This document shows, in pieces, positions 4,723-24,857 of a stretch of 64,000 nt of DNA. The notes beneath the pieces are model-generated. The model worked only from the letters and a program-made list of their open reading frames with translations, was not told where the DNA came from and ran no database searches. Source of the DNA: an uncultured Dehalococcoidaceae bacterium. GTDB taxonomy: Bacteria > Chloroflexota > Dehalococcoidia > UBA2979. The stretch is from positions 265,493 through 329,492 of the forward strand of contig CAYZJO010000002.1 in NCBI GenBank assembly GCA_964479165.1, read 5' to 3'. A program made the translations under genes and the position numbers. Each line of letters starts with the position of its first letter. Position 1 is the stretch's first letter.

Positions 4723-4724
4723 CG

Positions 4725-5369: not shown

Positions 5370-5383
5370 CGCCGGTCCTCCTC

Positions 5384-8451: not shown

Positions 8452-8714
8452 TCACGAACGCCCGGCGTTCATTCGCTCGTTGATGCGGCTGATCTCCTCA
8501 GCCCAGGCGCGGCGCTCCCGGTGCTCGAGGCGCAGCACTTCGTCTCGCGGCCAGTGGAAGTGGTACGAGACGAAGGCTGCCTCCTCCAGCAGTTGCTGCT
8601 CCGGGTAGCCGACGGCGCTCCAGTGCCGGCCGAGCCGCCGCAGCCCGAACTCGCCGAGCTCCTTGCTCAGCGTGTCATCGGCGGCAGGCCCGCCGCCGCG
8701 AGCGCCCGTTCCAG
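8452..8714 (-). CDS. -1 frame extension ORF; candidate transframe C-terminus of the upstream CxxC protein (tail assembly chaperone-like). It has no independent start codon.
   Basis: This -1 frame segment encodes a protein-like sequence (…LSKELGEFGLRRLGRHWSAVGYPEQQLLEEAAFVSYHFHWPRDEVLRLEHRERRAWAEEISRINERMNAGRS). There is no in-frame ATG/GTG/TTG after the stop of ORF 8667..9137. The only in-frame start (GTG 8823) would add a junk-like Arg/Gly N-terminus. Confidence 0.4.
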
Positions 8715-9137: not shown

Positions 9138-9601
9138 CAGCTCACCCTCTTGATGCCCTCATGCACGATGGTGATCTCCTCGACGCCGAATTCATTCGAG
9201 TCGACCTTGAGCGAGGGACCGCTGATCTTCGAGGGCCAGGCGTTCACGAAGTCCCAGCGAGCAACGGGGTTGTACTCGGAGTCCATCATCGTGATGGTCC
9301 CGTTGGTGCGGGCCTCCCTGACCTTGCCCTCGTTGACCTTCTGACGCCAATCCCAGAGTTCCATGTTGCTGGTGATGCCACGCTTGAGCGTGATGTCACC
9401 CCACTTGAGCTTCCCGGGAACCTTGAGAATGACCGCGTTCCCGTCCTTGTCGACGACCTTCTGCTCCACAACCTCGGTCTCGGCGCCGATGCCGGAGACC
9501 TCAGTGAAGAACCCACCGCCGGCGCTTTCGAGGTCGAGGTAGAACGCAAACCCGAGGAGCGGATCTTCCGAGACGGCCCCGGAGTCGTAGAGCTGTGGCA
9601 T
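9137..9601 (-). CDS. contractile-tail inner tube protein (Afp1-like)
   Basis: 154 aa. The pattern LGFAFYLDL...FTEVSGIGAETEVVEQK...PGKLKWGDITLKRG...ELWDW is typical of eCIS / T4 gp19-like tube proteins. Confidence 0.85.
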   Translation of the reverse strand: MPQLYDSGAVSEDPLLGFAFYLDLESAGGGFFTEVSGIGAETEVVEQKVVDKDGNAVILKVPGKLKWGDITLKRGITSNMELWDWRQKVNEGKVREARTNGTITMMDSEYNPVARWDFVNAWPSKISGPSLKVDSNEFGVEEITIVHEGIKRVS

Positions 9602-9656
9602 GTGCTGTTCCTTTCGCGGTCAGACCGCCGAAACGCGTGCGGCTGCGAGCCGGGCG

Positions 9657-11267
9657 CTACTCCTCGGCGCCCGGCGTGATCTGGCTGATGCGGAAGACAA
9701 CGAACTCGGCGGGTTTCACCGGCGCGATGCCGATCTCACAGACGAGGATGCCCGCGTCGATCATGTCCTGCGTGTTCGTCTCCGAGTCGCACTTCACGTA
9801 GAACGCCTCTTGCGGCGTCGCGCCGAAGAGCGCGCCCTGCGTCCACGTGCGGTTGAGGAACGCCGTCACGTCGCGGCGGACCTTCGCCCAGGTGCGCTGG
9901 TCGTTCGGCTCGAAGGGGACCCACTGCGTGCCCTGCTCGATGGAACCCTTGATGTAGTTGAAGAGCCGCCGCACGTTGAGGTAGCGCCACTCCGACGCCG
10001 CCTCGGCGAGCGTGCGCGCGCCCCAGATGCGGATGCCTCGACCCGGGAACGAGCGGATGCAGTTCACGCTCTGCACGTTCAACGTGCCGAGCTCCGCCTG
10101 CGTCAGGCTCGTCTCGAGATCAATGGCGCCCATCACCTCCTCGTTGGCCGGCGCCTTGTGCACGCCGCGCCGCGAGTCCGTGCGCGCCCATACTCCGGCG
10201 ACATGCCCGGACGGCGGGATGAACGACGCCGTCTTCGCTGCCGGGTCGTCGACCTTGATCCACGGGTAGTAGAGGACGCCGTAGCCACTGTCGCTCACGA
10301 GGTTCGCCTGCTTGCGCCAGTTCTCCATCTCCTGCGGAGACAGGCCCGGAGGCGAGTCGATGATCGCGACGCGATCCTCCATGCGCGTGCAGTGCGCGAT
10401 GAGCTGCTTCTGGACGGAGACCACGCCCTCCATGTCGATCAGGCCCTCCTGGAAGGCCTTCCACAGGTCGGGGATGGCGATCATCGTGACGTCGTCGAGC
10501 ACCTCGAGGCCGTCGATGCCCTCGCGGCGGGCGACGTCGCCCTGGAAGTCGGACGGGGAGACGGCGGTGACCGTCTCGGCGCCCTCGGCGAGGTTGTACG
10601 TGCCGACCGGCGGGACGCGGTTCGCGATGCTCACGCCGCGCGGCTGCAGGTCCTCGACGCTGATGAACATCGAGCCGCCGGACTCGGCGTTGATGACGTC
10701 GACGACGTAGCGCGCGTCGCTACGGCTGAGCGACAGGTCCTCGAAGGACTCTGCCGGGTACCCGGGCGCGCGCACGGTGATGCGGAAGCGGCCACCACTC
10801 TCGGATGCCTCGGGCGCCGGAGGCGCGTCCTCAGACGGCGCCCCGTCGCTGCCAGCGGGGGGAGCCGGCGGCGGCGCCGTTGGCTGGTCCTCGATCTCGA
10901 TGCGGACGTCGTTTCCCTGGGTGCCGGTCAGCTTCGAGGTGAAGCGGAGCGACTCCTGGGGCGATGCACGCCCCGGCAGCGCGAGCTGAGCGGGTGTGCT
11001 GTCGCCTTCACCGCCGATGCGGATGACGTAGCAGTTGCCGCCGCCGTTCATGAAGAAGCCGTACACCGCCAGCGGCGTGTACGAGCGGGTGAACCCGCCG
11101 AACGTCTCCTGGTACTGGGTCCAGTTCGTGACTCGGACGGCGCGGCCGACCGGGCCCTTCTCGGTGAACCCGACGAAGGCCGCGACCGACGTGCCGATAC
11201 CCTCGATGGGGCGGCTGCCGCTGGGGACCTCCTGCACGTATACGCCAGGCGCCTGGTAGGTAACCAT
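9657..11267 (-). CDS. contractile tail sheath protein (Afp2/3/4-like)
   Basis: 536 aa starting MVTYQAPGVYVQEVPSG..., the canonical sheath N-terminus. An RBS (GAGGAGAGG) lies upstream. Confidence 0.9.
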   Translation of the reverse strand: MVTYQAPGVYVQEVPSGSRPIEGIGTSVAAFVGFTEKGPVGRAVRVTNWTQYQETFGGFTRSYTPLAVYGFFMNGGGNCYVIRIGGEGDSTPAQLALPGRASPQESLRFTSKLTGTQGNDVRIEIEDQPTAPPPAPPAGSDGAPSEDAPPAPEASESGGRFRITVRAPGYPAESFEDLSLSRSDARYVVDVINAESGGSMFISVEDLQPRGVSIANRVPPVGTYNLAEGAETVTAVSPSDFQGDVARREGIDGLEVLDDVTMIAIPDLWKAFQEGLIDMEGVVSVQKQLIAHCTRMEDRVAIIDSPPGLSPQEMENWRKQANLVSDSGYGVLYYPWIKVDDPAAKTASFIPPSGHVAGVWARTDSRRGVHKAPANEEVMGAIDLETSLTQAELGTLNVQSVNCIRSFPGRGIRIWGARTLAEAASEWRYLNVRRLFNYIKGSIEQGTQWVPFEPNDQRTWAKVRRDVTAFLNRTWTQGALFGATPQEAFYVKCDSETNTQDMIDAGILVCEIGIAPVKPAEFVVFRISQITPGAEE

Positions 11268-11342
11268 GACCTCTCCTCGCTGCTCTCCGCTCGGAGCGCC
11301 GGCGTCCTCGCCGAGGTCTCCGCGCTGCTGCTCCTGATGCCG

Positions 11343-12222
11343 CTAGTCCTCCGACCGCTCCCCTTCGCCTTCGGAGGGTTCGTCGCCCTCCGCAGTCGCG
11401 AGATCGAGCGTGAGCACGCTGCCATCCGCGTACGCGCCGGCGGGTTCTTCCGACGCGAGCCGAAGGATGTCTCCATTGATGGCCACAAGTGCCGCCGTCG
11501 AGCCGCGGCGGACGCCGCGCAGCTCGAACGTGCCGTCCGCGCGGCTGGTCGCCGCTGAGCGATCCATCCGCACCTGCGCGCCAGCGACGGGCTCGCCATC
11601 GCGCACGAGGCGTCCGGTTATGTCGACCGGGATGTCCGGACTGACCGAGACGGGCGGCGGCATGACGATGCGCCGCTCGAGGACGAGCGGGCCCTCGCGC
11701 TGGATCTCGAGCTCGATCGGGATCGTGACCGACACCCGGATCGACGGCCGCAGGTCGTTGTCGAGGACGCTCCAGATGTCCACGATGTCCTTGATGGCCC
11801 CCGGCTGCGCGACCATCATCGGGATCTCGTAGCTCTCGGGAATGACGCCGTCGAAGGCCTCGAGGGGCAGCGTGAGGTGGCGGAAGAAGACGCGCGCCGC
11901 CCCCGTCAGCAGGCGGTGCTCGTCCTCGACCTCGTTGGACCAGGCGGTCACGAGGTACGAGCACTCGACGCGGATCGGGGGCCGCTTGTCGACGAAGCCG
12001 CCGTTCATACGCCCGGTCTCCCAGGGCGCGGGACGCAGCGTCCGGTTCTCCTGCATGTGGTAGAGGAAGAGGTTCAGCGTCGGACGCGTGAGCCTCGACG
12101 TGTTGTCGCGGCTGGGCACGTCGAAGGTAATGTCGAAGCCGCCCGCCTCGATGCGCTCGACGACGGTCGGCATCTCGGTGACGAGCAACGTACGCAGCGC
12201 GCGGTCGAGATCATCGATCATG
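11343..12222 (-). CDS. DUF4255 (Pvc16_N) tail terminator/cap-like protein (Afp16-like)
   Basis: The ORF track extends to 12506, but the conserved family N-terminus MIDDLDRALRTLLV...PTLNLFLYHMQENRTLRP begins at the ATG at 12220-12222. The upstream 95 codons are an Arg/His-rich in-frame artefact. Confidence 0.65.
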
Positions 12223-12316
12223 GCGCGCGCACCGTAGCGGCACGCGATTGCTGAATCGTTGCTTGCTCGTTGATAGGCGGGCTCGCGGCCGCCAACGGTC
12301 GCCACCCGGCCGGCGA

Positions 12317-12646
12317 CTACGTCCCGAGGACCTGCACCTGCCCCGGGTTCGCGATGATCGCCGGTACCCCCGGCGACCCGCCCATGCACAGGCCGATGCT
12401 GCTGGCGAGCAGCACAGGGATGTTGTTCACGAAGGTGCTGACGGCGGGCATCGTCCACTGGATGCTGACGCACGGCGCTGGCGCGCCCGCGATGTTGAAC
12501 ACGCATCCGGCGATCATCGTGACGTCACTCACCACGAGGACCGGGGCACCGCCGATGAGCACGGTCGGGTTGCTCGGCACAGTTGTCGCCTGCCCACCAT
12601 GAGGGCACATGATGGTCGCGGACGCGTTGAGGATCGGCGCCGGCAT
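12317..12646 (-). CDS. PAAR-like spike-tip protein (Afp10-like)
   Basis: 109 aa, Gly/Pro/Ala/Val-rich, with MCPHGGQ...VLIGGAPVLV motifs typical of PAAR-like domains. An alternative start at 12610 would give MCPHGG. Confidence 0.55.
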   Translation of the reverse strand: MPAPILNASATIMCPHGGQATTVPSNPTVLIGGAPVLVVSDVTMIAGCVFNIAGAPAPCVSIQWTMPAVSTFVNNIPVLLASSIGLCMGGSPGVPAIIANPGQVQVLGT

Positions 12647-12675
12647 TGAGGGCGCTCGGAGCTACGGGTTGCGGG

Positions 12676-13488
12676 CTAAGCGCCTGCCGCCGCGCTCGGG
12701 CCGTGCGGGCTCCGGTGCAGCGACATCTGGATACCTTCCTCATCTTCTTCCGGCACGTCTTCCCGGTGGAGCGAGGGTGCGAGCTCGGGCTCCTCTTCCT
12801 CTTCGGGAAGCTCGCGTGCCAGCGTCGAGGACATCTGCAGCTCTTCCTCAGGCAGCTCCTCCCGGGCCAGCGCCGAGGACATCTGGAGTTCCTCCTCCGG
12901 CGCTTCCTCGCGGGCGAGCGAGGTGCTGATGCTCGAGGACGGCGCGGACGCGAGCTCCTTCGAGAACGCCGACGCTTCCTGCTCCGCGGCGTCCTGCGGG
13001 CTGCTCACCCGCATGTCGCTGCCGCCGACTCCACCTTCACCGCCGCGCTGCTGCACGACGTGCGTCAGCTCGTGCGCGAGGAGTTGGTCGCCGCCGCTCG
13101 TGCCGGGCTGGTACTTGCCCTGCCGGAAGAAGATGTCCGACCCCGTCGTGAACGCGTCCGCCGACACGGCGTGGTTGAGCAAGTTCGCCTCGGAGTCGTC
13201 GTGCACGCGCACGTCGCTGAGGTCCGCGCCGAGCGCACCGCCGACACGTCGCTGCACCTCCGTGTCGAGGGAGCGACCGCCGCCCCGCTTCGACTCGATG
13301 GCATCCTCGACAGTCGAGTCGACAGCCGGATGCTCCTCGTCATGCTCGGACCGCAGCAGTCGCTGGACGGCCGCGTTACCGAGGGTCGAGACCAGCGGCG
13401 GCCGCGGGCGCGCTGCCTGGGGGCCGTCGGCCTCCGTCTCGCGCTGCCTCGCCCGTACCTCGTCCGTGAGTTCGTGGTCGAGAGTCAT
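12676..13488 (-). CDS. DUF4157 (eCIS-associated, HExxH zinc-metallopeptidase-like) protein with acidic C-terminal tandem repeats
   Basis: GRSLDTEVQRRVGGALGADLSDVRVHDDSEANLLNHAVSADAFTTGSDIFFRQGKYQPGTSGGDQLLAHELTHVVQQ matches the DUF4157 core. I prefer the start at ATG 13486-13488 (MTLDHELT, RBS AGGAGA) over the 13539 start. N-terminal TLGNAAVQRLL motif. Confidence 0.8.
   Translation of the reverse strand: MTLDHELTDEVRARQRETEADGPQAARPRPPLVSTLGNAAVQRLLRSEHDEEHPAVDSTVEDAIESKRGGGRSLDTEVQRRVGGALGADLSDVRVHDDSEANLLNHAVSADAFTTGSDIFFRQGKYQPGTSGGDQLLAHELTHVVQQRGGEGGVGGSDMRVSSPQDAAEQEASAFSKELASAPSSSISTSLAREEAPEEELQMSSALAREELPEEELQMSSTLARELPEEEEEPELAPSLHREDVPEEDEEGIQMSLHRSPHGPSAAAGA
12800..12945. repeat. 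About three imperfect tandem copies of a 45-nt unit inside the DUF4157 gene
   Basis: The DNA units (…gccagcgtcgaggacatctgcagctcttcctc… / …gccagcgccgaggacatctggagttcctcctc…) encode LAREEAPEEELQMSS / LAREELPEEELQMSS / LARELPEEEEEPE. Confidence 0.6.
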
Positions 13489-13519
13489 GATGTCTCTCCT
13501 CGATTGCCGGTTCCGACGC

Positions 13520-15712
13520 TTAGCGTCGGGCCTCTTCATACCACTCTGCGAAGTCGGCCGTCGTAACGAGGCGGCCGAGCTTCTGATACTCGCGACGCGC
13601 CGCGCGGATCAGGTGGCGCATGCCGATCGGTCCGCCGTCCGCAGCCGCGAGGAACGCCGCCAGCACGGCGATGTTGCGGATGTTGCCGCCGGCCACTCGG
13701 AACTGCCTCGCGGCGAAGTCCAGGTCGAGGTCATCGGCGAGCGGCGCGTTCGTGCGGAAGTTGAGCTCCCAGATGCGGCGGCGGTCGTCCTCGTCCGGCA
13801 CGGGGAAGTCGATGATCGCCTTCAACCGCCGCAGGAACGCGTCGTCAAGGTTGGCCCGCAGATTGCTAGAGAGCACGACGATGCCGTCGTACTCCTCGAT
13901 CTTCTGGAGGAGGTAGCTGACCTCGATGTTGGCGTAGCGGTCGTGCGAGTCGCGCACTTCGGTGCGCTTGCCGAAGACGGCATCCGCCTCGTCGAAGAAG
14001 AGGATGGCGCTCGCGCCGCTGGCCTCGTCGAATACGCGCGCGAGGTTCTTCTCCGTCTCACCGATGTACTTCGAGACCAGGCCCGAGAGGTCGATCTTGT
14101 AGACGTCGAGGCCGAGCTCGCCAGCGATCACCTCGGCGGCCATCGTCTTGCCGGTGCCGGACTCGCCGACGAACAGTGCCGATACGCCACGCCCGAGGGA
14201 CGCCTTGCCCGCAAACCCCCACTCCTCGTAGACCACGTGCCGGTGCAGCACCTGGAGCGCGATCTCTTTGAGTTGAGTGATGCGCTCTTCCGGCAGGACG
14301 ATGTCCTCCCAGCGATAGCGCGCCTCGATGCGCTGTGCCACGTCTGCGAGCCGCGGCTGCGACTGCATCCGCGCCGCCGTCTGCAAGGCCTCGAGGCCCA
14401 CGCTCTCCTCCCCGCGCCACGTACCGAGGCTGCGCGCCATGCGCGCTGCCGACTCGATGTCGGCTGCACCGAGGCGGAACGTGGCCGCGAGCTGGTCGAG
14501 GTCGTCTGTGGCGGCCGCGTCGCCGGCGGCGGCGGCCCAACGCCTGCGGGACTCCTCGTAGGTCGGCTCGTGCACCTCCATCACGAGGTCGAGTACGGGT
14601 TCGCGCGCGGGCGGACGCGGGGCGCGGCCGCCGAAGAGCACCGGCAGGGGGTGATCCTCAAGGGTGCGCGCGATCAGCCGCCCGAACGGCTCGATCGCGC
14701 CGGGCCGCTCGCCGTCGTCGTCCCAGCCCTCGAAGTAGAGCGCGAGCCCGAGGACGCAGGCGTCGCGACGCAGCCGCTGGAGTGCCCGCGGGGCGTCGGC
14801 GGGAGCGCGTTCACGCAGTGCGCCTGTATCGATGCTGGCGAGCCCAAGGCCGAGTTCGGTGCACGCGACACCGATGCGAGCACGCTTCTCCGCGACCCAC
14901 CGCCCTGCGAGGTAGACGCGCGCGTCCATGCGTCCGCGCAGCACCTCGGCGAGCCTTGCGCCGTCCGCAAGGTCCGAGGGATACGGCTCCACCTCGAGCT
15001 CGACCAGTCGTGCAATGCCCTCGAGCCGCGGGTCGAGACTCGGCGTGGCGTCATCCCTGCCGAGCAGCAGCGTCGCGACGTGAGGGTCGAGCTGCACGGC
15101 GTGGGCGAGCAACGACGGCGCGACGGCTGCAGCGTCGTCGGCGGTGGACAGCAGTTCGTACGTGATCAGGGGCGCGTTGGGCTCGAAGAGGCGGCGCAGC
15201 GCCAGCGCCTCGCGCCGCCCATCCGCGATCAGGTCGAGCACGAGCCCGACCGTCGGACGCTTCCTCGTGACATCGTCGTTCACGTAGGCGAAGACCTTCG
15301 CGTACGCCTGGTCGAGGTGCGGCGCGAGCGCGACCACGAGCGCCTGGCGTTCCTCGGGCGAAAGCCCGAACGCGGCCACGAGACGCTCAAGCGGCAACGT
15401 CACCCCGGCTGCCACGGATGTAGCAGCGCGCGCGTCGAGGTCGGCGCGGGAGGCTGCGGCTGCTCGCCGCAGTTCGGCGAGTCCCCCCGGCTGCTCGTCC
15501 GGAACCCCGAGCAGGTCGTCAACCTCCTCGTCCGAGATGTAGAGCCCACGGTAGTCGTCGGCAGGACCGAGCGCGCGACGACGCCGGCCGCGCTCCACCT
15601 CGATGCGCAGGCGGAGCGCGAGCCAGCGCAGCTCCGCCTCGAGCTGGTCGAGCGACGACGCGAAGGGCTCCGGCGCCTCGATCGACAGCGGTGGTTCCGC
15701 GGTGAGCGTCAT
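13520..15712 (-). CDS. AAA+ ATPase of the eCIS (Afp15-like)
   Basis: 730 aa. Walker A GESGTGKT, ILFFDEADAVFGKR and the SSNLRANLDDAFLRRL sensor region at the C-terminus, with a long N-terminal domain as in Afp15/Pvc15. RBS GGAGAGG upstream. Confidence 0.9.
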   Translation of the reverse strand: MTLTAEPPLSIEAPEPFASSLDQLEAELRWLALRLRIEVERGRRRRALGPADDYRGLYISDEEVDDLLGVPDEQPGGLAELRRAAAASRADLDARAATSVAAGVTLPLERLVAAFGLSPEERQALVVALAPHLDQAYAKVFAYVNDDVTRKRPTVGLVLDLIADGRREALALRRLFEPNAPLITYELLSTADDAAAVAPSLLAHAVQLDPHVATLLLGRDDATPSLDPRLEGIARLVELEVEPYPSDLADGARLAEVLRGRMDARVYLAGRWVAEKRARIGVACTELGLGLASIDTGALRERAPADAPRALQRLRRDACVLGLALYFEGWDDDGERPGAIEPFGRLIARTLEDHPLPVLFGGRAPRPPAREPVLDLVMEVHEPTYEESRRRWAAAAGDAAATDDLDQLAATFRLGAADIESAARMARSLGTWRGEESVGLEALQTAARMQSQPRLADVAQRIEARYRWEDIVLPEERITQLKEIALQVLHRHVVYEEWGFAGKASLGRGVSALFVGESGTGKTMAAEVIAGELGLDVYKIDLSGLVSKYIGETEKNLARVFDEASGASAILFFDEADAVFGKRTEVRDSHDRYANIEVSYLLQKIEEYDGIVVLSSNLRANLDDAFLRRLKAIIDFPVPDEDDRRRIWELNFRTNAPLADDLDLDFAARQFRVAGGNIRNIAVLAAFLAAADGGPIGMRHLIRAARREYQKLGRLVTTADFAEWYEEARR

Positions 15713-15760
15713 GCCCTCTCCGAACGCTACCGGCTCAGTGTGCCGGATCGAGGTTGCGAG

Positions 15761-15779
15761 GCGATTGACGCGCGATTGA
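15761..15779. promoter_or_regulatory. direct repeats GCGATTGA-cgc-GCGATTGA (11-bp period), candidate SARP binding site / eCIS operon promoter element
   Basis: Located in the 73-nt gap between the SARP gene stop (15786) and the ATPase start (15712). The SARP family is known to bind direct repeats with 11-bp periodicity. Confidence 0.3.
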
Positions 15780-15785
15780 TGGGCG

Positions 15786-16799
15786 CTAATCGAGCCCGAG
15801 TTCGCTCAGCAGCGCCCGCGTCTCCTCGGACGGCGCAACATCGAACTCGGCGCGGAGGCGCTCCTCGCAGAGGCGGTACTGCCGCATCGCCTGGGCGCGG
15901 TTCCCCAGCATGGCGTGAGCGCGGACCACCCAGCGGTGCGCGGCCTCGTCGAAGGCGTCGCGCAGCACCAGCGTCTGGCCCAGCTGCAGCACTCGCGCCC
16001 ACTCCCCGCTCGCCGCGCCGTACTCGATCAGCCGCGCGACTGCCCACTCGTAGAGATTGCCGAGTGCCAGCCGCGGCTCGCCGGTCCATTCTTCTGTCAA
16101 GTCGGACTCGAGGAAGTCGCCGCCGTACTCCGCAAGTGCCGCATCGAGGCACGCCACCGCCTCGGCCTTCCGGCCCGCCGCGAACTCCGACTTCGCGCGA
16201 CCGACCGCCTCGCGGAACTCGACGGCGTCCACGTGCCACTCGAGCCCGCCATCGAGGCGGTACAGACCCTGCTCGACGAACAGCCCGCGACTTCCGTCGC
16301 CGTCACCCAGCCCCTCGCGAAGCCTCGAGCGGACGTGGTGCACGGCAATGCTGAGGTTGTTCGCACCTCGCGCGGGGTCGGAGTCCGGCCAGAACGTCTC
16401 GATGAGCGTCTCGCGCGCGGTCGGCCGCCCCGGCGTCAGCGCGAGGTAGGCGAGCAACTGGCGCGCCTTGCGGCTGCGCCAGCGATCGACAGGCCGCCCA
16501 TCGATGCTCAACTCGAACGCGCCGAGCAGGCGCACGCGGACCTCGGGAACCGGGGGCGCGGACGCCTCGACCTCGATCACCGGCGCCTGACGGGTGGCTG
16601 CCGCCTCGAGACGCGGAGCCACCAGCGCGAACAACCTCGCCTGCTCGCTGCGCAGTTCCGCGAGCTCGGCCCGCGTCTCGACCATCAGGCTGTGTAGCGC
16701 GTCGAGGCGATCGAAGACCGCGACGGCAGCGACATCGTCGGGCGTGCGGTCGCGCAGGACGAACGGCAATTGCGGTTGAGCGGCGAAGGCGATCCGCAT
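15786..16799 (-). CDS. SARP-family transcriptional regulator (OmpR-type winged helix plus BTAD domain)
   Basis: VRVRLLGAFELSIDGRPV...RKARQLLAYLAL...RETLIETFWPD...ANNLSIAVHHVRSRL followed by a TPR-like BTAD region. Co-oriented with, and immediately upstream of, the eCIS ATPase gene. Confidence 0.8.
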   Translation of the reverse strand: MRIAFAAQPQLPFVLRDRTPDDVAAVAVFDRLDALHSLMVETRAELAELRSEQARLFALVAPRLEAAATRQAPVIEVEASAPPVPEVRVRLLGAFELSIDGRPVDRWRSRKARQLLAYLALTPGRPTARETLIETFWPDSDPARGANNLSIAVHHVRSRLREGLGDGDGSRGLFVEQGLYRLDGGLEWHVDAVEFREAVGRAKSEFAAGRKAEAVACLDAALAEYGGDFLESDLTEEWTGEPRLALGNLYEWAVARLIEYGAASGEWARVLQLGQTLVLRDAFDEAAHRWVVRAHAMLGNRAQAMRQYRLCEERLRAEFDVAPSEETRALLSELGLD

Positions 16800-16933
16800 C
16801 GAGGAGCCTCGGTCGGGGAGACCGCGGACGCCGGCACCGTCTCTGCCTCGTGCTATGGCGGCGGCGGCGAACGCGCGGCATTATACCAACCGCACGGACG
16901 CACACCCTCTTGTCGTCGAACAGGATTCCCTCG

Positions 16934-19159
16934 ATGACTCAGTCTCGCCTCGGCGACCTCGGGACGGGCGGTGGCGGTCTGCCCTGGGGCAAGATCGGGA
17001 TCGGCGCGGGCATTGTGGCGCTGCTGCTCCTCCTGTTCTTCCTCGTCACCAGGGGCGGGGACGACGAGGAGTCGCTGGAGCAGGGACCGCAGTCAGCGGT
17101 GATGTGCCTTCCCGAGGAGGAAGTCGGCGCGTCCGCCGGCACCTCGGTCGCGACGCCCGCAACCACGGGGGCGGGCGTGGGCGTCGAGGGCGCACCACCG
17201 AAGATGGTGGGCGGCGTCGAGCTCTACTTCCAGAACGATCCGCGCTGGGCCAACACGGAGTACGCCTTCTCGACTGCCCTGCCGCAAGGCAAGGACTGGT
17301 GCGGCACCACGATCGGGCAATGCGGCTGCGCAATGACCTCGCTCGCGAACGTCCTCGCCCTCTTCGACATGGTCAGCACCCCGATGGGCGAACCCCTCCA
17401 GCCCGAGAGCTTCAACGGCTGGCTCAACCGCGACGCTCAGTTCCAGGGTCAGTGCTTCATCAGCCCGGGCTACTACTGTGGCGAAGTCATCTGGACCGAC
17501 ATCCAGGCGTTCACGGCTCAGCGGCGACTGCAGGATCCGAGCCTGCCGCTCCTCCGTTTCCGCGGCCGGGGCAACGGCAGCGAGGCCGAGGTGCGCGCGG
17601 AGCTCGAGGCCGGACGGCCGGTCATCCTCGAGGTGCGCGGTCACTTCGTGCTCGCGGCCGGCCTCGAGAATGGCGAGATCGTCATCCAGGACCCGTACTA
17701 CCCCGAGCGCGATCGCTACGAGGACATCGCGCCGATGCTCATCAGCAGCCGCTTGTTCGAGGTGGCCGAGCGCGCGGGCGGCATCGTGGTCATGGCGCAG
17801 GGCGACACGCAGATCACCATCACCGACTCTGACGGCCGGGTCACCGGCACGACGATGGACGCCTCCGGCTCCGGCGAGACGCCGACCCCCGAGCCAGGCG
17901 AAGCAGAGATCCCCGGGTCGAGCGTCAACTTCGAGGACCGCTGGCGCGACCCGACCTGCACCGAGCGCGCGCCGGACCCCGACGACCCGGGCAACGTCCA
18001 GCTGTTCCTGCCGCACGCGGCGTCGGGCGACTACAACATCGACGCCCAGTTCCCCCCGGGCAGCGAACGCTGCATCGCGGTGTACTCCTACGCCGACGAC
18101 GGCACGGTCACGATCGAGATGATCTGCGGGACTGGCACCCTCGACGCAAACATCTCGTACTCCTCGGGCTCCTCAAGGTCGACTCCGACGCCGACACCGA
18201 GTCCGACCGCCACTCCGACCGCGGAAGCGACCGCGACCGCAACGCCGACACCGGAGCCCACGGAGGCACCGGCGACGGCCACCCCGACCCCGGAGCCGCC
18301 CACACCGTCGCCCACGGCCCCTCCGACGGCGACGCAGCCGCCGCGCACGCCGACCGCGGCGCCGACGCCAGTCGCACCAACGATCCAGTCGGTCACCTGC
18401 ACGCCCGCCTCGGTCTCCGTCGCCGCCTCGATTACGTGCCGCGCAACGGTCTCGGGGACGGCGACCTCGTACGCGTGGTCGTCGCAGGGCGTTCCGAGCA
18501 GCGGCGCGCAGGCCACGTTCACCACCAGCTTCCCCACGCCCGGTGCGAAACGCGTCGACTTCCGCGTGTGCAACGGAACGCGCTGCACGACGGGGTCCGC
18601 CAGTGTGACCGTGGTCGCGCCGCTCGATGCCTCGTTCAACTGCACGCCGACCAGCGTGAACGTGAATGCGAACGTGACGTGCACAGCCGCGAGGCAGGGG
18701 CAGGGGGCCTATAGCTGGAACGCAAGCGGCGGAAACCCGGCCAGCGGTGCCGGCACGACGTTTACGACGCGCTTCGGCACGGCAGGCTCCAAGACCGTCA
18801 CCCTCAACGTGTGCAACGCCTCTGGCTGTCAGCCGGCATCGAGGCAGATCACCGTGACGTCGCCGTTCACGGTCACCGCCTTCTGCAACCCGGGCCAGGC
18901 CACGTATGGGGACCCGGTCCACTGCGCAGCGCAGTTCAGCGGCGGCGTTCCGGAGACGTTCCAGTGGATCGTGGCGCCTGCCTCGGCCATCGAGTTCTTT
19001 GGCCAGGACACGCCGTCGTTCACCGTCTACTTCTACTCACTCGGCCAGTACACGGTCGCCGTGAACGTCTGCACCGAGTTCGGTTGTGCTGGAGACAACG
19101 TGATCATCACAGTCATCGAGGATGACTCCGACCCGCCGATCAACGGAACGCCTGACTGA
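16934..19159 (+). CDS. membrane-anchored secreted protein: C39-like (Peptidase_C39_2-type) cysteine peptidase domain, Pro/Thr-rich linker, three Cys-containing Ig/PKD-like repeats
   Basis: Start at ATG 16934 (MTQSRLGDL... then TM GIGAGIVALLLLLFFLV). LYFQNDPRWANTEYAF...CGTTIGQCGCAMTSLANVLALF resembles the C39_2 catalytic region. A linker TPTPTPSPTATPTAEATATATPTPEP follows. Three repeats of about 95 aa, each with CTP..V...TC.A...YSW...G..ASGA.TTFTT.F.T.G.K.V...VCN..GC. Confidence 0.55.
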   Translation: MTQSRLGDLGTGGGGLPWGKIGIGAGIVALLLLLFFLVTRGGDDEESLEQGPQSAVMCLPEEEVGASAGTSVATPATTGAGVGVEGAPPKMVGGVELYFQNDPRWANTEYAFSTALPQGKDWCGTTIGQCGCAMTSLANVLALFDMVSTPMGEPLQPESFNGWLNRDAQFQGQCFISPGYYCGEVIWTDIQAFTAQRRLQDPSLPLLRFRGRGNGSEAEVRAELEAGRPVILEVRGHFVLAAGLENGEIVIQDPYYPERDRYEDIAPMLISSRLFEVAERAGGIVVMAQGDTQITITDSDGRVTGTTMDASGSGETPTPEPGEAEIPGSSVNFEDRWRDPTCTERAPDPDDPGNVQLFLPHAASGDYNIDAQFPPGSERCIAVYSYADDGTVTIEMICGTGTLDANISYSSGSSRSTPTPTPSPTATPTAEATATATPTPEPTEAPATATPTPEPPTPSPTAPPTATQPPRTPTAAPTPVAPTIQSVTCTPASVSVAASITCRATVSGTATSYAWSSQGVPSSGAQATFTTSFPTPGAKRVDFRVCNGTRCTTGSASVTVVAPLDASFNCTPTSVNVNANVTCTAARQGQGAYSWNASGGNPASGAGTTFTTRFGTAGSKTVTLNVCNASGCQPASRQITVTSPFTVTAFCNPGQATYGDPVHCAAQFSGGVPETFQWIVAPASAIEFFGQDTPSFTVYFYSLGQYTVAVNVCTEFGCAGDNVIITVIEDDSDPPINGTPD

Positions 19160-19210
19160 CCGTCACCACCTCGCGCCCGACTCGGGGCTGGCATGGGCCT
19201 GGCTGGCGCG

Positions 19211-20371
19211 TTACGGGACGTTCCCGCCGTCCACTGAGACTTGCGCGGCGGCTTCGTCAGCTGCGATCTGGGAGCGGATACCCTCGGCCGCAGTCAGCGC
19301 TTCCTCCATGTCTTCGTCGCTCGTCCACCAACCGAAGTGGCCCTTCGGAACCACACCCAACGCCTCGAGACGCTCCTCGACGGGTGTGCCCGGCGCCTTG
19401 AAGTAGGTGCTCTCGAAGAAGATGAATGGCCCATCGCCGGGCTTTTCCGTCACCTTGAGCGTTGGCAGCCAATTCGCCCAGATGCCCCGCTCGATCTTGT
19501 CGGCGAGCGATGCCTCGTCCACCGCGGGTGGCTGCTTCATCAGTGGATTGCTCTTCAGCCAGCCGTCGAGCACTGTCTTCACGCTGGGAGGATCGATGTC
19601 GTTGAACTCCGACAACTCCCAGGAGTCGAGCTGGGTCTTTGCCTTGACGATCGTCTGCTTCACCTGACGCCATGCCGCGCTGACCGCATTCTCGATGCTG
19701 TTCTGGTATTCGAGCGGTGCGAGGTTCACCTTCTGCGCGCTCGGCGACAGCGCGGCCGTCGCAACATCGAAGCTCTTCCCTACGGCGGCCTGCAGGGCAT
19801 CTTCGAGCATCCCAGCAGTCTTAGCTCCAATCTTGGGGATGCTCGTCAGCGCCTCGCCCATGCCCCCACTCATCCCGGTTGCGATAGCACTGAACACGCT
19901 CATCACGACTGACAAGTTGAGTGCGTTCACGCGGGCTGAGGCGTTCACGGCGTCCTCGTGACGCCGGTACGCCGTCGAGTACGCGGTTCCGACGCTACGC
20001 GCGTAGATCTCCCACGCCGTCTTGTTGTCCTCGAACTGGTCGCCAGCCGTATCAATGATGCGGTACGTCTTGTTCCTCTTCTGCTCCCACTCGAACTCCT
20101 CAGCAGTGGGTCCGTCCCGCTGGAGCACCCGCGAGGTCACGGATGAGGGTGCAAGCAACCGCTGGACGTACGAGTTGCCGCGCGTCCGTTGGAGGTGTAG
20201 TACGTGCCCTGCTGAACGCCGGACGTCCGGCGGGAGAGGCGGGGTGAGACCGCCCGCGCCGGCGTGATCTCGGAGAGAGACCGCCTCGTCAGACGGTTCG
20301 GACTCGATCGGCAGACTGCGCGCGACCACGTCGGACCGAGCGTCTACGCGCTCCACGGAACCTTCGGCCAT
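19211..20371 (-). CDS. hypothetical protein, candidate eCIS cargo/effector. It carries an N-terminal LHLQRTRGNSYVQRLL motif shared with the DUF4157 protein, and an amphipathic Gly-zipper-like segment.
   Basis: The ORF track extends to 20968, but that upstream part is an Arg/Ser-rich in-frame artefact. The ATG at 20369-20371 gives MAEGSVERV... (386 aa). I recognise no enzymatic motif. The segment LNLSVVMSVFSAIATGMSGGMGEAL is hydrophobic. Confidence 0.5.
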   Translation of the reverse strand: MAEGSVERVDARSDVVARSLPIESEPSDEAVSLRDHAGAGGLTPPLPPDVRRSAGHVLHLQRTRGNSYVQRLLAPSSVTSRVLQRDGPTAEEFEWEQKRNKTYRIIDTAGDQFEDNKTAWEIYARSVGTAYSTAYRRHEDAVNASARVNALNLSVVMSVFSAIATGMSGGMGEALTSIPKIGAKTAGMLEDALQAAVGKSFDVATAALSPSAQKVNLAPLEYQNSIENAVSAAWRQVKQTIVKAKTQLDSWELSEFNDIDPPSVKTVLDGWLKSNPLMKQPPAVDEASLADKIERGIWANWLPTLKVTEKPGDGPFIFFESTYFKAPGTPVEERLEALGVVPKGHFGWWTSDEDMEEALTAAEGIRSQIAADEAAAQVSVDGGNVP

Positions 20372-20534
20372 CCGTCGCCTCCCAACCGGCGGGACGCAGC
20401 GTAGGGAGCCCCGATTGACACTCGGTTGACCGCCGATTGAAGTGAACTCGGCTGGGGCAGTCGATCGTTCGTCGCCGCGCGTCGATCGACGCGTCTTGCT
20501 TCCCAGACCAGGGTCAGGCGCGACTGGAACTCCG

Positions 20535-21674
20535 ATGACGCCAGTGGCGAGTGGTGCAGCTTCCACCTCCAGCGAGGTCCTGAGCACGCGCGCACTCAAC
20601 CGGGCACTGCTCGCACGCCAGATGCTGCTCGAGCGCGTACGGAAGCCAGCGCTCGAGGCTATCGACTTCCTCGTTGGTTTGCAGGCGCAGGAGCCGAAGG
20701 ACCCGTACGTCGGTCTCTGGTCACGGCTCGAGGGGTTCGATCCGGGGGAAGTCGAGTCGCTGCTCCTCGAGCGCCAGGTGGCGCGAGCCCCACTGATGCG
20801 CGGGACGATCCACCTCTCGACGGCGCGCGACTGCCTCGACCTGCGGCCGTTGATGAAGCCCGTGTACGACCGCGGGCTCAAGAGCAACTTCGCGAAACGG
20901 CTGCCCGGCCTGGACCTCGACCAACTCGCCGAGGCGGGTCGCGCGCTGCTGTCGGGCGAGCCGCGCACGTTCGCCGAACTCCGAGGTGAGCTCGGCAGCC
21001 GCTGGCCGGCTGCCGAGCCGCAGGCCCTCGGCTACTCGGTCAGTTACCTCGTGCCTCTAGTGCAGCCGCCGCCTCGAGGACTGTGGCATCGCAGTGGCCA
21101 GACGAAGTGGGCGACCACCGAGCGCTGGTTCGCCAAGCGGATGGCGCGACGGCCCTCGATCGATGCGATGGTGCTGCGCTACCTCGCGGCCTTCGGCCCG
21201 GCGAGCGTCATGGACGTGCAGGCGTGGTGCGGCCTGACCAGGCTGCGCGAGGTCGTCGAGCGGTTGCGGCCGCAACTGGTCACCTTCCGCGACGAGCGCG
21301 GCGTCGAGCTGTTCGATCTGCCGGACGCGCCGCGCCCCGACCCGGAGACGCCTGCACCCGTCCGCTTCCTCCCCCAGTACGACAACGTCTTCCTCTCGCA
21401 TGCGGACCGCGCTCGCATCGCTCCCGAGGAAACGCGCGGCTTCACGATGCGAGAGAACGGCTTCCTCAGCCAGTTCACCCTCGACGGGTTCATCGGGGGG
21501 ACGTGGCGTCTCAAGCGTGAGGGCAAGTCGGCTTTGCTGCGAGTGACCCCGGCCCGGCGCTGGCCCAAGCGAGACCAGAACGCCGTCCTCGCCGAGGCCA
21601 CGCGCCTCATCGAGTTCATGTCCGCCGAGGCAGCCTCGCGCGAGGTGATCCTCGAGCCGCCGATCAGGCAGTGA
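20535..21674 (+). CDS. winged-helix DNA-binding domain protein, YcaQ/DUF1006-like
   Basis: Starts MTPVASGAASTSSEVLSTRALNRALLARQMLLERV.... I recall this pattern from the DUF1006 family only loosely, from memory. Confidence 0.5.
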   Translation: MTPVASGAASTSSEVLSTRALNRALLARQMLLERVRKPALEAIDFLVGLQAQEPKDPYVGLWSRLEGFDPGEVESLLLERQVARAPLMRGTIHLSTARDCLDLRPLMKPVYDRGLKSNFAKRLPGLDLDQLAEAGRALLSGEPRTFAELRGELGSRWPAAEPQALGYSVSYLVPLVQPPPRGLWHRSGQTKWATTERWFAKRMARRPSIDAMVLRYLAAFGPASVMDVQAWCGLTRLREVVERLRPQLVTFRDERGVELFDLPDAPRPDPETPAPVRFLPQYDNVFLSHADRARIAPEETRGFTMRENGFLSQFTLDGFIGGTWRLKREGKSALLRVTPARRWPKRDQNAVLAEATRLIEFMSAEAASREVILEPPIRQ

Positions 21675-21677: not shown

Positions 21678-22085
21678 CTAGCGGTTGCCTGCGGGACCCG
21701 GAGGGCCGGGCGGATGCTCACCGCTGCCCGGGGTTCGCGCAGGCGGCGGCGCCGTCATCTCACCGGCACAGCGCGTGAAGAACGGCGTCATCTGCGGCAG
21801 CTCCGCGGGGAACGCCGCGTTCACCTGCGCGGGTGCACCCGGGATGTAGATGTTCCACGTCGACTGCCGGAGGATGGCGACCACTGCCGCCTCGCATCCG
21901 CTCGCCCGCAGGTCGGTGACCAGCGTCGACGCCGCGGCGGGACCGGAGGTCACAAGGAGGCCGATGCCGCCGACCGGCGGTACCTCGCCCGTGAAGGAGG
22001 GCGTCTGCGCCTCAGCGCGCTCGCTGAGCGCACCTCCGAGGGCGAGCGTCAGGACGAGGATGCCCGTGGCGAACGCGCGTCTCAT
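21678..22085 (-). CDS. small secreted hypothetical protein (signal peptide)
   Basis: MRRAFATGILVLTLALGGALSERAEAQTP.... Last gene of the HerA-like ATPase operon. Confidence 0.4.
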   Translation of the reverse strand: MRRAFATGILVLTLALGGALSERAEAQTPSFTGEVPPVGGIGLLVTSGPAAASTLVTDLRASGCEAAVVAILRQSTWNIYIPGAPAQVNAAFPAELPQMTPFFTRCAGEMTAPPPARTPGSGEHPPGPPGPAGNR

Positions 22086-22169: not shown

Positions 22170-22394
22170 CTAGCGGCCGAACATGCCTCCGAGGCCTTCC
22201 TTCAGCTTGTCGGCCATCCCGCCGAAGTCCGCGTTACCGTCGAGCGCGTTGCGCAGTTGACCGGCGATCGGCTCGGGCAGCTTGTCCTGCAGGGCCTCGA
22301 GGACCGCATCGATCGCGTTCTGCGCCTGCGAGGCATCGATGCCTGCTCGCTCAGTCACTTTCTTGATCAGTTCTTCCATCGGATCCTCCTTCAC
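22170..22394 (-). CDS. small conserved-looking hypothetical protein (74 aa, helical, Gly-rich C-terminus)
   Basis: MKEDPMEELIKKVTERAGIDASQAQNAIDAVLEALQDKLP.... Starts 6 nt after the ATPase stop. Confidence 0.4.
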   Translation of the reverse strand: MKEDPMEELIKKVTERAGIDASQAQNAIDAVLEALQDKLPEPIAGQLRNALDGNADFGGMADKLKEGLGGMFGR

Positions 22395-22400: not shown

Positions 22401-24857
22401 TCACGCGGTGGGAATCCACGCGAGCGCCACTTCATCCACGCTGACATCATCGCGCTCGAGGCCAACCTCAATTCGCTCAATCCGCGCCGCGATCTCGTCC
22501 CAGTGCTCGACGAGGTCGGCCAGGTCTTCCTGTAGGTCGGCCTCGATCTCCTCGAGCTCCTCGGCGCGGCGTCCGAGCTCGTCCTCCGCGTTCTCGAGAC
22601 GCTGCTTCGTCCTCGACGTCATGCCGCGCCTCGAGGAGATGCCGCCGGCCGAGCGACCCAGCCGCCCCGCGATCGATCCCGCGGACGCCTTGCCCCCGAG
22701 GAACGCGCCCAGCACGGCCCCGATGCCGGAGATGATCTCCTGACCGCGGCGGGACTGCGTGTCCGCCTCGTACTGCTCGACGCGGTCCTCGGCCTTCGCA
22801 ATCGCGGCTCGCACCCGGTCCATCTTCGAGGCGAAGGTGTCGCGCAGCTTCGCTGCGTCGCGGTCGGCCTCGGAGCGCGCAGCATCGAGGCAGCGCTTAC
22901 GGAAGTCCTCCTCCGTCTCGCCGACGCGCGAGTAGAGCTTGAGCTCCTTGTTCGCGAAGACCTCGATGGTCTGCTCGCGCTGGAGGAGCGCCTTGAGATC
23001 GCGCTCGATGTCGCGGAAGAGTGTCGCCGTGCCGAGGTTGACGGGTGGGATGTAGAACACCGTGCCCGCGGGACGCTCGGTGCGGAGGTCGCGGGCATCG
23101 AAGTCGACCGGCCGCGCATTGCTCGCGGCGGTGCCCTCGGCGAGCGGGATGATCGCCTCCCACTCCTCGCGGTGGTCGATGCCGGCCTTCGTGTCGTCGT
23201 AGCGCAGGTGCAGGCGCGCGGCGATGACCGGCTCGAGGCGCGTGCCGCCGGCCACGGCTCCGAACTCAGCCGCCCACGGCGCAGCGGGATCGACGTAGTA
23301 CACGGGTACGCCGGCCGGGGTCGCCGGAGGCACCGGCGACTCGTTCTCGCCCACCGCTGCCGGAGCCGCCTCGGTTGCTGACACGGGCGTCGACGGCGCC
23401 GGTGGCGCCGCAGCCGTGAGGGCTTCGGAGGCTGGCGCGGCGGACGAGCCTGGTGCAGCGCCCGCTGGCGCCGTGTGGTTAGGGAGCTCCGTGAGTTGCT
23501 GGCGTGTGAGCGGGCCGCGGAGGTAGGACATCGCCCAGCGCGCCGAGAACCGACTTGGGCCGCCTCGGTCGTGGGCGTTGTGCATCACGAACTGCCGCCG
23601 GCCGAGGCCGCTGATCGTGCGGTCGATCAACGGGAGGTCGACGTCACCGCCGACGGACGACAGCGCCTCGAGGACGCGCGCCTTGTCGCGCTCCGTCTGG
23701 AGGCGGCCGATCATCCAGGTCCCGGCGTTCGACATCGCCTTGTAGTCGAGGTCCACCGGGTTCTGCGTCGCGAGCACCACGCCGACGCCGTAGGCGCGCG
23801 CCTGCTTGAGCAGCGTGAGCATCGGCCGCTTGGCGGGTGGCTCTGCCGTCGGAGGTACGAAGCCGACGACCTCGTCCATGTACATCAGCGCGCGGAGGTT
23901 GTTCGTGCCGCTCTGCCCGCGCATCCACGTGATCAGCCGCGCCAGCACCAGACTCACGACGAACTGCCGCTCGGCATCGGAGAGGTGGGCGAGGTAGAGG
24001 ATCGACGCCCGCGGGCGGCCGTCCGGGGTGTGGAGCAGCGCACCGATGTCGAGCGGCGCACCCTCGGTCCAGGCGGCGAACGTCGGCGAAGCGACGAGGC
24101 CGTTGAGCCGCATCGCGAGCGCGCGACGGTCGTCCGCCGGGAAGAACGTATCCACCTCGAAGACGCCGAGCTTGCGGAACGGCGGCTCGATGACCTGCGC
24201 GATCAGCGCCGCCAGATCGAGGTCGCGGCCCGCCGACCACGCCGTCTCGACGATGTTCGCGAGCAAGATGTGCTCGCGGCTCGCGAGCGGGTCCGCCGCG
24301 ATGTCGACGAGCGAAAGCAGGCCGCTGACGAGCGTCCCTGCCTCCTCGCGCACGGACTCGAGGTCGCTCGGGTTCGCCGGCGCGCGCAGGTTGCCGATGA
24401 TGTTCAGCGGCACCCCCGCCGTCGAGCCCGGCGTGTACACGGTGAACGCGACGTTCGAGGTGAGCGCGCGCATCTGCTCGGGCGTCACGCCCGCGCCGGC
24501 CAGCCCCTCGCGCCACGTCGTGGCCTGTTCGGTGGCGAAGTCGGAGACGCTCTTGCCGGCGTTACGCGCGTCGCCCTCATTGACCCACGGCTCGAAGTCG
24601 GCGGGCGCGAAGTCCGGGAAGTTCAGCAACAGGTTGGGCATGTCGCCCTTGGGGTCGAGGATGAGCGCCGGGATACCCGAGGCCAGCAACTCCTCGAGCA
24701 GCACCACCGCGAGGCCGGTCTTGCCCGATCCGGTCATGCCGACGATGACGCCGTGCGTCGTCAGGTCGTCGCGGTCGTAGACGAGGCGCTCGCCGGAGTC
24801 CTCGCCCGATCCGAGGTCGAGCCGCTGTCCGAGATACAGGTCCGAGACGCCGGCCAC
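22401..24857 (-). CDS. HerA/FtsK-superfamily P-loop NTPase (DUF87-like ATP-binding protein) with a coiled-coil C-terminal region
   Basis: GTG start. Walker A HGVIVGMTGSGKTGL. LILDPKGD, and a Walker B-like MYMDEVVGFV. Confidence 0.7.
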   Translation of the reverse strand: MAGVSDLYLGQRLDLGSGEDSGERLVYDRDDLTTHGVIVGMTGSGKTGLAVVLLEELLASGIPALILDPKGDMPNLLLNFPDFAPADFEPWVNEGDARNAGKSVSDFATEQATTWREGLAGAGVTPEQMRALTSNVAFTVYTPGSTAGVPLNIIGNLRAPANPSDLESVREEAGTLVSGLLSLVDIAADPLASREHILLANIVETAWSAGRDLDLAALIAQVIEPPFRKLGVFEVDTFFPADDRRALAMRLNGLVASPTFAAWTEGAPLDIGALLHTPDGRPRASILYLAHLSDAERQFVVSLVLARLITWMRGQSGTNNLRALMYMDEVVGFVPPTAEPPAKRPMLTLLKQARAYGVGVVLATQNPVDLDYKAMSNAGTWMIGRLQTERDKARVLEALSSVGGDVDLPLIDRTISGLGRRQFVMHNAHDRGGPSRFSARWAMSYLRGPLTRQQLTELPNHTAPAGAAPGSSAAPASEALTAAAPPAPSTPVSATEAAPAAVGENESPVPPATPAGVPVYYVDPAAPWAAEFGAVAGGTRLEPVIAARLHLRYDDTKAGIDHREEWEAIIPLAEGTAASNARPVDFDARDLRTERPAGTVFYIPPVNLGTATLFRDIERDLKALLQREQTIEVFANKELKLYSRVGETEEDFRKRCLDAARSEADRDAAKLRDTFASKMDRVRAAIAKAEDRVEQYEADTQSRRGQEIISGIGAVLGAFLGGKASAGSIAGRLGRSAGGISSRRGMTSRTKQRLENAEDELGRRAEELEEIEADLQEDLADLVEHWDEIAARIERIEVGLERDDVSVDEVALAWIPTA

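Follow-up and report, generated by a model that had tools for sequence, protein, structure and literature searches.

Except in a few insect-associated proteobacteria, little is known of how extracellular contractile injection systems (eCIS) are switched on, and in the laboratory the majority of environmental eCIS stay silent. This question is raised by a locus in a 64-kb stretch of DNA from an uncultured Dehalococcoidaceae bacterium (hereafter, the window), in which a gene for a SARP-family regulator is co-oriented with an eCIS gene cluster and ends 73 nt before the first gene of that cluster, as the initial annotation had stated. The region examined, positions 15713-16799, comprises this regulator gene and the gap that follows it. 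Our analysis leads us to propose, with a probability that we put at roughly 80%, that the SARP binds a set of short repeated boxes at three promoters, here termed P1, P2 and P3, and activates them, co-inducing the assembly ATPase, the particle and a candidate cargo protein.

Within the gap, a direct repeat with an 11-bp periodicity had been reported, and both its coordinates and its spacing are exact. The sequence GCGATTGA occupies positions 15761-15768 and 15772-15779 of the forward strand, 11 bp apart, and reads TCAATCGC on the minus strand, which carries the genes. As evidence by itself, this two-copy repeat was rejected: an exact 8-mer recurring at an offset of 11 is observed twice in the window, while Markov-1 simulations yield 3.8 +/- 2.8, i.e., the repeat is at chance level. 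Likewise, the window contains 3 copies of GCGATTGA, compared with 2.2 expected. The significance comes not from the bare repeat, but from an extended pattern of three boxes. A mismatch-tolerant search revealed these to be TCAATCGC at 15779-15772, TCAATCGC at 15768-15761, and a degenerate GCAACCTC at 15757-15750. That is, the gene strand reads TCAATCGC-n3-TCAATCGC-n3-GCAACCTC, followed after 7 nt by the -10-like hexamer CACACT. The P1 transcript would start at about 15729-15731, with a leader of approximately 18 nt containing GGAGAGGG ahead of the ATPase gene, which starts at 15712.

The original reading is extended further in that three promoters carry the boxes, rather than one. P2 came to light on reading the eCIS intergenic regions, and lies 5' of the structural genes; P3, which the mismatch-tolerant search had already brought out as a second set of three phased copies, lies 5' of the gene for the cargo candidate. 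When both strands of the 64 kb were scanned, the pattern NCAA-n7-NCAA-n7-NCAA was found exactly three times, against 0.01 expected. All three sites are intergenic and on the minus strand; a spacer of 7 nt separates each from a downstream hexamer that fits nAnnnT, namely CACACT (P1), TACGGT (P2) and TACGCT (P3). If the box is taken to be the heptamer TCAAYCG, the distance from the last box to the hexamer is exactly 8 bp in each case. From the hexamer to the start codon there are 24 nt at P1, 9 nt at P2 and 26 nt at P3; because the hexamer is so close to the ATG, the P2 transcript would be leaderless or nearly so.

These sites also stand out when the information used to find them comes from elsewhere. 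A position weight matrix (PWM) was built only from five orthologous loci at 54-59% SARP identity, and 30 random windows served as the null. This matrix ranks P1 (15750-15779) first in the window, with 34.5 bits, and P3 second, with 24.1 bits; the null maximum is 17.6 bits. A match at 22242-22271 on the minus strand (13.7 bits) falls within the null range, is probably due to chance, and was not counted; it lies about 157 nt 5' of an open reading frame for a secreted-looking protein of 135 aa (21678-22085) and downstream of a gene for a HerA/DUF87-like ATPase (22401-24857). The initial annotation had proposed to look for the repeat at two other genes, with a divided outcome: the cargo candidate has a triple box upstream, but neither the PWM nor the triple-CAA pattern finds one in the window ahead of the divergent C39/PKD gene. 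The same holds for the SARP gene. The N-terminal region of the cargo candidate contains the motif GNSYVQRLL, which resembles GNAAVQRLL of the eCIS_core protein; owing to this likeness, the 386-aa protein is a plausible cargo.

The geometry of the three sites can be compared with that of characterised SARP targets. According to the promoter rule for this family, direct repeats are 11 or 22 bp apart and the 3' repeat is 8 bp from the -10 element (PMC10936776). With -10 elements and starts as predicted here, P1, P2 and P3 follow this rule exactly. The suggestion that the repeats in the gap occupy the place of a -35 element is also borne out: they sit where the -35 would be, and the 3' heptamer is 8 bp from the -10-like hexamer. 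AfsR binds as a side-by-side dimer to a box that overlaps a poor -35; in this complex it provides an alternative docking site for region 4 of the sigma factor, and the -10 of the afsS promoter (CACTGT) is suboptimal (PMC10936776). A scan of positions 12000-21000 found no consensus sigma-70 promoter.

The SARP gene itself is preceded by an extended -10 element, TGGTATAAT, whose equivalents at the same place in the related loci L012-L019 are TGCTATGAT, TGCTATCAT or TAGTATCAT. The conservation of this element shows that -10 elements of the sigma-70 type are in use in the lineage; next to it, the predicted promoters with boxes are weak. The 80-nt leader between TGGTATAAT and the SARP start codon is GC-rich.

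Conservation in orthologous loci had been set beforehand as the test on which the repeat could fail, and the repeat is kept. A protein search returned 55 relatives of the SARP, those with names being from metagenome-assembled genomes (MAGs) of Chloroflexota, Dehalococcoidia and Thermomicrobiales. Among the 35 best matches, the majority can be aligned almost from end to end, with the N-terminal 95 residues included, even at identities as low as about 35%. The boxes are retained in eight further lineages, in which the SARP is 54-88% identical or the ATPase is 57% identical. In the eight contexts at 54-88% SARP identity, the gene order is divergent PKD/C39 (where the contig reaches it), SARP, ATPase, eCIS_core, a DUF4280-like protein of about 108 aa, Pvc16 and sheath; the exceptions are L017, without calls for the eCIS_core and small genes, and L016, which has lost the ATPase gene, as has the further locus L021. 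The gap between the SARP and ATPase genes carries the triple box and the hexamer in every one of these eight contexts.

P1 is kept in L012, L013, L014, L016, L017, L018, L019, L021 and L035. In L014, for example, it reads TCAATCGC ccg TCAATCGC gga ACAACCGC tcaggcg CACACT, and in L017, TCAATCGC cgg TCAATCGA gca CCAAGCGC gatcgcg CACAGT. P2 is found with the same geometry in L012, L013, L014, L016, L017, L018 and L019, as well as in L035; its hexamer is TAnnnT in 6 of 7 lineages (TACGCC in L016), and 3-10 nt separate it from the start codon. A homologue of P3 is located at 4388-4417 of L013, upstream of a cargo homologue that is 51% identical. Throughout L001-L020, the triple-CAA pattern occurs only at equivalent positions. 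Over the lineages at 54-59% SARP identity, the column conservation of the boxes is 0.80-0.84, while that of the upstream and downstream flanks is 0.53-0.60; the values are 0.81-0.86 for the P1 and P2 hexamers, and 0.55 and 0.76 for the 7-nt spacer at P1 and P2, respectively. Across lineages, the boxes lie 7 to 41 nt from the SARP stop codon, and between 3 and more than 100 nt separate the hexamer from the start codon that follows. Conserved boxes amid diverging flanks and shifting distances amount, in these alignments, to a phylogenetic footprint. The consensus over 51 boxes is T/G-C-A-A-T/C-C-G-C, in which the AA is invariant and C2 is present in 48 of 51. The position of the hexamer relative to the boxes does not vary among the orthologues; A2 is found in 16 of 17 sites, and T6 in 15 of 17.

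Some of these loci differ in ways that deserve mention. The P1 boxes persist where the AAA+ ATPase gene has been lost, in L016 (9063-9610) and L021 (11177-12105), and in L021 the region is flanked by two genes for IS481-family transposases (2941-3894 and 16405-17358); both loci look like decaying eCIS clusters. In L012, whose SARP is the most similar of all (88% identity), a different gene, for an OmpA-domain protein, is found in the cargo slot at 3562-3800; it lacks SARP boxes and has a promoter-like TTGACG-n17-TACTCT. The box appears, from this comparison, to travel with the cargo gene. The C39/PKD gene adjoins the SARP gene in L012-L016, L019 and L023, as judged by Pfam, even though the eCIS is oppositely arranged in L023, and its product might work together with the SARP.

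The search for boxes was widened by scanning the DNA of metagenome contigs with TCAATCGN4TCAATCGN5CAA. This gave at least 120 loci, 28 of which, all of high GC content, were inspected. Most matches among these 28 are 11-bp tandem microsatellites, with L035 and L026 as the only eCIS promoters; this pattern lets too many tandem repeats through. In L035 and L026, where the ATPase is 57% identical, the site reads TCAATCGT ctg TCAATCGC agg CCAATCAC tgccctc TAGTCT and ends 6 nt short of the ATPase start codon; P2 has a counterpart there as well. Roughly 80 bp upstream of the ATPase boxes, both loci also contain a second triple box in the reverse orientation (GCGATTtgcac GCGATTGAcat TGCATTGA; TAACAT comes next when the other strand is read); the opposed boxes are at about 4016-4048 and 4126-4155 in L035, and at about 903-935 and 1013-1042 in L026. 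This arrangement suggests back-to-back divergent promoters of the SARP type. Open reading frames upstream of the L035 boxes look non-coding, and were rejected as genes.

A scan of genome contigs found only distant relatives of the SARP, at 47% identity or less. SARPs at 36-38% identity are still linked to eCIS. In L004, L006, L007, L008 (about 12.7-13 kb) and L023 (4624-13563), these relatives, from Dehalococcoidia and Chloroflexia MAGs, are found at the 3' end of a converging eCIS rather than at the 5' end, and a conserved sequence of the form GATTGAG-GCAACCGC-TCA-CCAAC..-GCTTTAGCA reappears in the intergenic DNA of late genes (L023, about 8447-8481; L006, about 10895; L007, about 10797).

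Is the regulator indeed a SARP? It had been assigned to the family on the basis of its sequence, and Pfam domains and fold comparison agree. Trans_reg_C (PF00486) matches residues 109-162 with 30.4 bits (cutoff 26.2), and BTAD (PF03704) matches residues 190-333, directly after the winged helix-turn-helix (wHTH), with 75.6 bits (cutoff 22.1). The OmpR-type wHTH spans approximately residues 86-190, including the recognition helix at 142-164, and the BTAD spans residues 190-333. A profile of the family, compared with the PDB, recovers EmbR (2fez, 1.3e-17) and AfsR (8hvr), with coverage confined to profile positions 87-339. The AlphaFold model of the protein has a pLDDT of 86.8, and its wHTH shows beta-strands and three helices. 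Foldseek searches with this model gave EmbR (2ff4, E 3.5e-12) and AfsR (8k60 and 8hvr, E ~6e-12 to 7e-11), the target-normalised TM-score against AfsR being 0.77-0.78. By its domains and predicted fold, the regulator is a SARP; its model can be superposed on the corresponding domains of EmbR and AfsR. The recognition helix contains the longest invariant run of the family (R144, N147, N148, L149, S150, I151 and A152), which fits the unchanging DNA core of the boxes.

The protein fits neither the 'small' nor the 'large' class of SARPs, as its extra module is N-terminal and nothing is added at the C-terminus. This N-terminal extension of 95 aa (window positions 16515-16799) is specific to the family; EmbR and AfsR are without such a module. 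Residues 1-19 are predicted to be disordered, yet they hold an LPFVL motif in which P12, F13 and L15 are invariant in the family alignment. Residues 20-68 form a single long helix of 49 residues in the AlphaFold model, and its conserved hydrophobic positions have a period of 3.5 residues, i.e., the heptad signature of a coiled coil. Oligomerisation and signal input are two possibilities for the role of the extension.

Taken together, we favour activation by the SARP because the geometry of the boxes, their restriction to three promoters and their conservation across lineages agree with the domains and the fold of the regulator. According to this mechanism, the SARP gene would be transcribed from its own extended -10 promoter, TGGTATAAT. 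SARP protomers would then align side by side, one per helical turn, on three direct, 11-bp-phased boxes (TCAAYCGC). At each of the three promoters, which lack a -35 element and whose -10 (nAnnnT) is weak, these boxes would cover the -35 region. In the way shown for AfsR, the SARP on the boxes would stand in for the -35 as the contact of sigma region 4 and bring in RNA polymerase. The P1 unit would provide the AAA+ ATPase, the eCIS_core protein and the DUF4280-like (PAAR-like) protein; the P2 unit, Pvc16, sheath, tube and baseplate; and the P3 unit, the unlinked cargo candidate, 3.6 kb away on the other side of the regulator. In this manner, assembly factors, particle and payload would be switched on together. 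We infer the binding of the SARP to DNA, activation instead of repression, the transcription starts, and oligomerisation via the N-terminal coiled coil. The developmental or stress gating of eCIS activation that the initial annotation had envisaged is pure conjecture.

Several points weigh against activation by the SARP. The third box of P1 (GCAACCTC) is degenerate. The gap is free of a terminator, and transcripts begun at the SARP promoter could run on into the eCIS and account for part of its transcription. The sigma-70 consensus used for scoring may not be that of the host lineage. In L035 and L026, no SARP gene is found within 14.7 kb despite the boxes before the ATPase gene, which implies that adjacency of the SARP is not universal. 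Direct repeats about one helical turn apart are also recognised by response regulators of the OmpR/PhoB type. Lastly, binding, start sites and the effect on expression are predictions made in silico.

The two points before the last of these also underlie the alternative that survives best, namely that the boxes are a real operator bound by another factor, such as an OmpR/PhoB-type response regulator encoded elsewhere, and that the SARP has a different target. Besides the boxes in L035 and L026, it can appeal to the two-component systems encoded a few kilobases upstream in L019 and L020. We regard this explanation as unlikely, since the SARP is the sole regulator kept beside the boxes in eight lineages, whereas the two-component system is not conserved. 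Furthermore, boxes over the -35 with 8 bp from the 3' repeat to the -10 are an arrangement specific to SARPs (PMC10936776), and the invariant recognition helix of the SARP parallels the core of the box, with its invariant AA and nearly invariant C2.

A second alternative is that the SARP binds the boxes but represses, either by occluding the promoter or by blocking read-through, and comes off only in response to a signal. In its favour, the boxes overlap the core promoter, where repressors bind as well, and with no terminator between the SARP and ATPase genes there would be read-through to block. Nevertheless, repression seems improbable to us. Targets without a -35 and with -10s as weak as those of P1, P2 and P3, compared with TGGTATAAT at the promoter of the SARP gene, are typical of activator dependence; the SARP domains characterised so far activate from exactly such a position (PMC10936776); and a road-block would be irrelevant at P2 and P3, given where these lie relative to the SARP gene.

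There is still less room for the notion that the repeat arose by chance or by a mutational duplication and has no function, and that eCIS transcripts are simply extensions of those begun at the SARP promoter. The count of bare repeats in the window (2 seen, ~3.8 expected) and the short, terminator-free gap would suit it, but the occurrence of the triple box at three promoters, its conservation down to 54% SARP or 57% ATPase identity while the flanks diverge, and the ranking of P1 and P3 at the top by the orthologue-only PWM would not; conservation, as seen in these alignments, has already largely refuted this explanation. Finally, an RNA element in the gap (attenuator, terminator or riboswitch) with the repeats as part of its structure, conceivable in an intergenic region between co-oriented genes, can practically be dismissed, as the folding energy resembles that of shuffled sequences (z = -0.42), Rfam has no match at E <= 0.1 in 11500-21500, neither this gap nor the other two box regions contain a terminator-like site in our scan, and direct repeats form no stems.

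With the activation model as our preferred reading, we turn to the genes that it would control, which are listed with the predicted promoter elements in the table below. The genes at 501-15712 are a bona fide eCIS of the Afp/PVC type: sheath, tube, baseplate, spike, a Pvc16/Afp16-like cap, an Afp15-like ATPase and a DUF4157 protein are all in one cluster. The small DUF4280-like gene, of 109 aa in this locus, is kept across orthologous loci. Upstream of the cargo candidate, and divergent from it, is a gene for an AlkZ-like DNA glycosylase (20535-21674, plus strand), and P3 lies in the intergenic region that the two have in common; the AlkZ-like gene is kept in L012 and apparently broken in L013. 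Farther away, at 39780-52277, the window contains genes for an F420-dependent oxidoreductase of the LLM class and for trehalose enzymes of the TreS/TreZ type, a gene content that suits a host in Chloroflexota as well as one in Actinomycetota.

Table. Genes and predicted promoter elements of the eCIS locus, in window coordinates.
Feature	Position	Strand	Basis or remark
P3 operator, TCAATCGG cgg TCAACCGA gtg TCAATCGG	20411..20440	-	5' of cargo candidate
P3 -10-like hexamer, TACGCT	20398..20403	-	followed by 26-nt leader containing GGGAGG
Cargo/effector candidate, 386 aa	19211..20371	-	no Pfam match
Divergent membrane-anchored C39-like peptidase/PKD-repeat protein	16934..19159	+	Pfam
Extended -10 TGGTATAAT, probable activator-independent promoter of SARP gene	16880..16888	-	~80 nt 5' of SARP ATG
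SARP-family regulator, 337 aa	15786..16799	-	Pfam Trans_reg_C and BTAD
P1 operator, three 11-bp-phased boxes	15750..15779	-	top match of orthologue PWM; conservation
P1 -10-like hexamer, CACACT	15737..15742	-	7 nt past third 8-mer, i.e., 8 bp past heptamer
First eCIS gene, AAA+ ATPase with N-terminal winged-helix variant domain (Afp15/Pvc15-like)	13520..15712	-	Pfam WHD 4.6e-46, AAA 7.5e-25
eCIS_core (DUF4157) protein	12676..13539	-	Pfam PF13699, 1.8e-31
109-aa protein with weak DUF4280 (PAAR-like) likeness, last gene of P1 unit	12317..12646	-	Pfam 21.7 bits, under 26.3 cutoff
P2 operator, TCAACGAG caa GCAACGAT tca GCAATCGC	12244..12273	-	5' of Pvc16_N/structural genes
P2 -10-like hexamer, TACGGT	12231..12236	-	9 nt before ATG at 12221
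Structural eCIS genes 3' of P2	501..12221	-	Pfam
Pvc16_N	11343-12221	-	Pfam
Sheath	9657-11267	-	Pfam
Tube gp19, two genes	9137-9601 and 7782-8237	-	Pfam
801-aa protein	5384-7789	-	
CIS_tube/LysM	4725-5369	-	Pfam
VgrG-like spike	2980-4773	-	Pfam
gp25	2490-2954	-	Pfam
Baseplate J	501-2465	-	Pfam

The small SARPs ActII-ORF4, DnrI and RedD have a core of similar size, are situated within the clusters that they control, and act on several promoters of one cluster through heptameric repeats. The SARP described here differs from them in its N-terminal extension, in a target cluster that does not make a metabolite, and in its origin in an uncultured lineage; its named relatives are from Chloroflexota MAGs, not from actinomycetes. 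A close parallel is the SARP domain of AfsR on afsS, from Streptomyces coelicolor (PDB 8hvr, 8k60 and 8jke), which has the same wHTH and BTAD fold and whose target has 11-bp direct repeats over the -35, the 3' one lying 8 bp ahead of a suboptimal -10. AfsR acts on two repeats and continues at its C-terminus into NOD and TPR domains, whereas the present SARP has three repeats, the 95-aa extension and no C-terminal module. In addition, the two are only ~22-24% identical, the box here is TCAAYCGC, and the target is a phage-tail-like machine, not a metabolite pathway. EmbR, from Mycobacterium tuberculosis (PDB 2fez and 2ff4), is the best match of the wHTH and BTAD module in both sequence and structure, but it has a C-terminal FHA domain that takes kinase input, whereas the present SARP lacks an FHA domain and has an N-terminal coiled coil instead.

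An association of BTAD regulators with eCIS is already known. In Geller et al. 2021 (PMC8213781), BTAD is listed as a 'shell' domain of eCIS, and a BTAD regulator beside an eCIS is proposed to regulate it. A 2026 review repeats the association (PMC12961389), and a further study draws a BTAD regulator in the predicted interaction network of the phage-related (CIS) genes of Streptomyces clavuligerus (PMC13102240). GerE (PF00196), the domain of what Geller et al. 2021 call a 'conserved eCIS transcriptional regulator', has no match in the proteins scanned around the locus. In the portions available, PMC8213781 and PMC12961389 report a genomic association only, whereas here a defined three-box operator is predicted at three promoters, including that of a cargo candidate. 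The full-text literature searched, whose coverage leaves subscription journals outside, describes no operator, promoter architecture or regulon of an eCIS BTAD regulator. That such a regulator stands beside an eCIS is thus no surprise to a specialist; the operator prediction is useful and directly testable.

A more speculative extension, which we consider doubtful, is that these proteins form a distinct SARP subfamily dedicated to eCIS, in which the LPFVL motif and the 49-residue coiled coil set the stoichiometry, e.g., a trimer on three boxes, and receive a signal, perhaps via the C39-like/PKD protein. If true, this would be a new sensor-activator pair that times the building of the particles, and probably also the lysis that releases them with their cargo.

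For the study of eCIS, the locus offers three handles: a single cluster-situated activator; a short operator, i.e., three copies of TCAAYCGC with an 11-bp period, 8 bp from the -10; and a predicted regulon in which a cargo gene outside the cluster joins the genes for assembly and structure. Together these would make a testable switch. Overexpression of the SARP could awaken the eCIS, as is practised with silent antibiotic clusters, and a scan of the genomes of this lineage for the box is a route to effectors encoded away from the cluster. Activation of an eCIS in this way would carry the 'sigma-adaptation' promoter architecture of SARPs beyond secondary metabolism, and probably beyond Actinobacteria.

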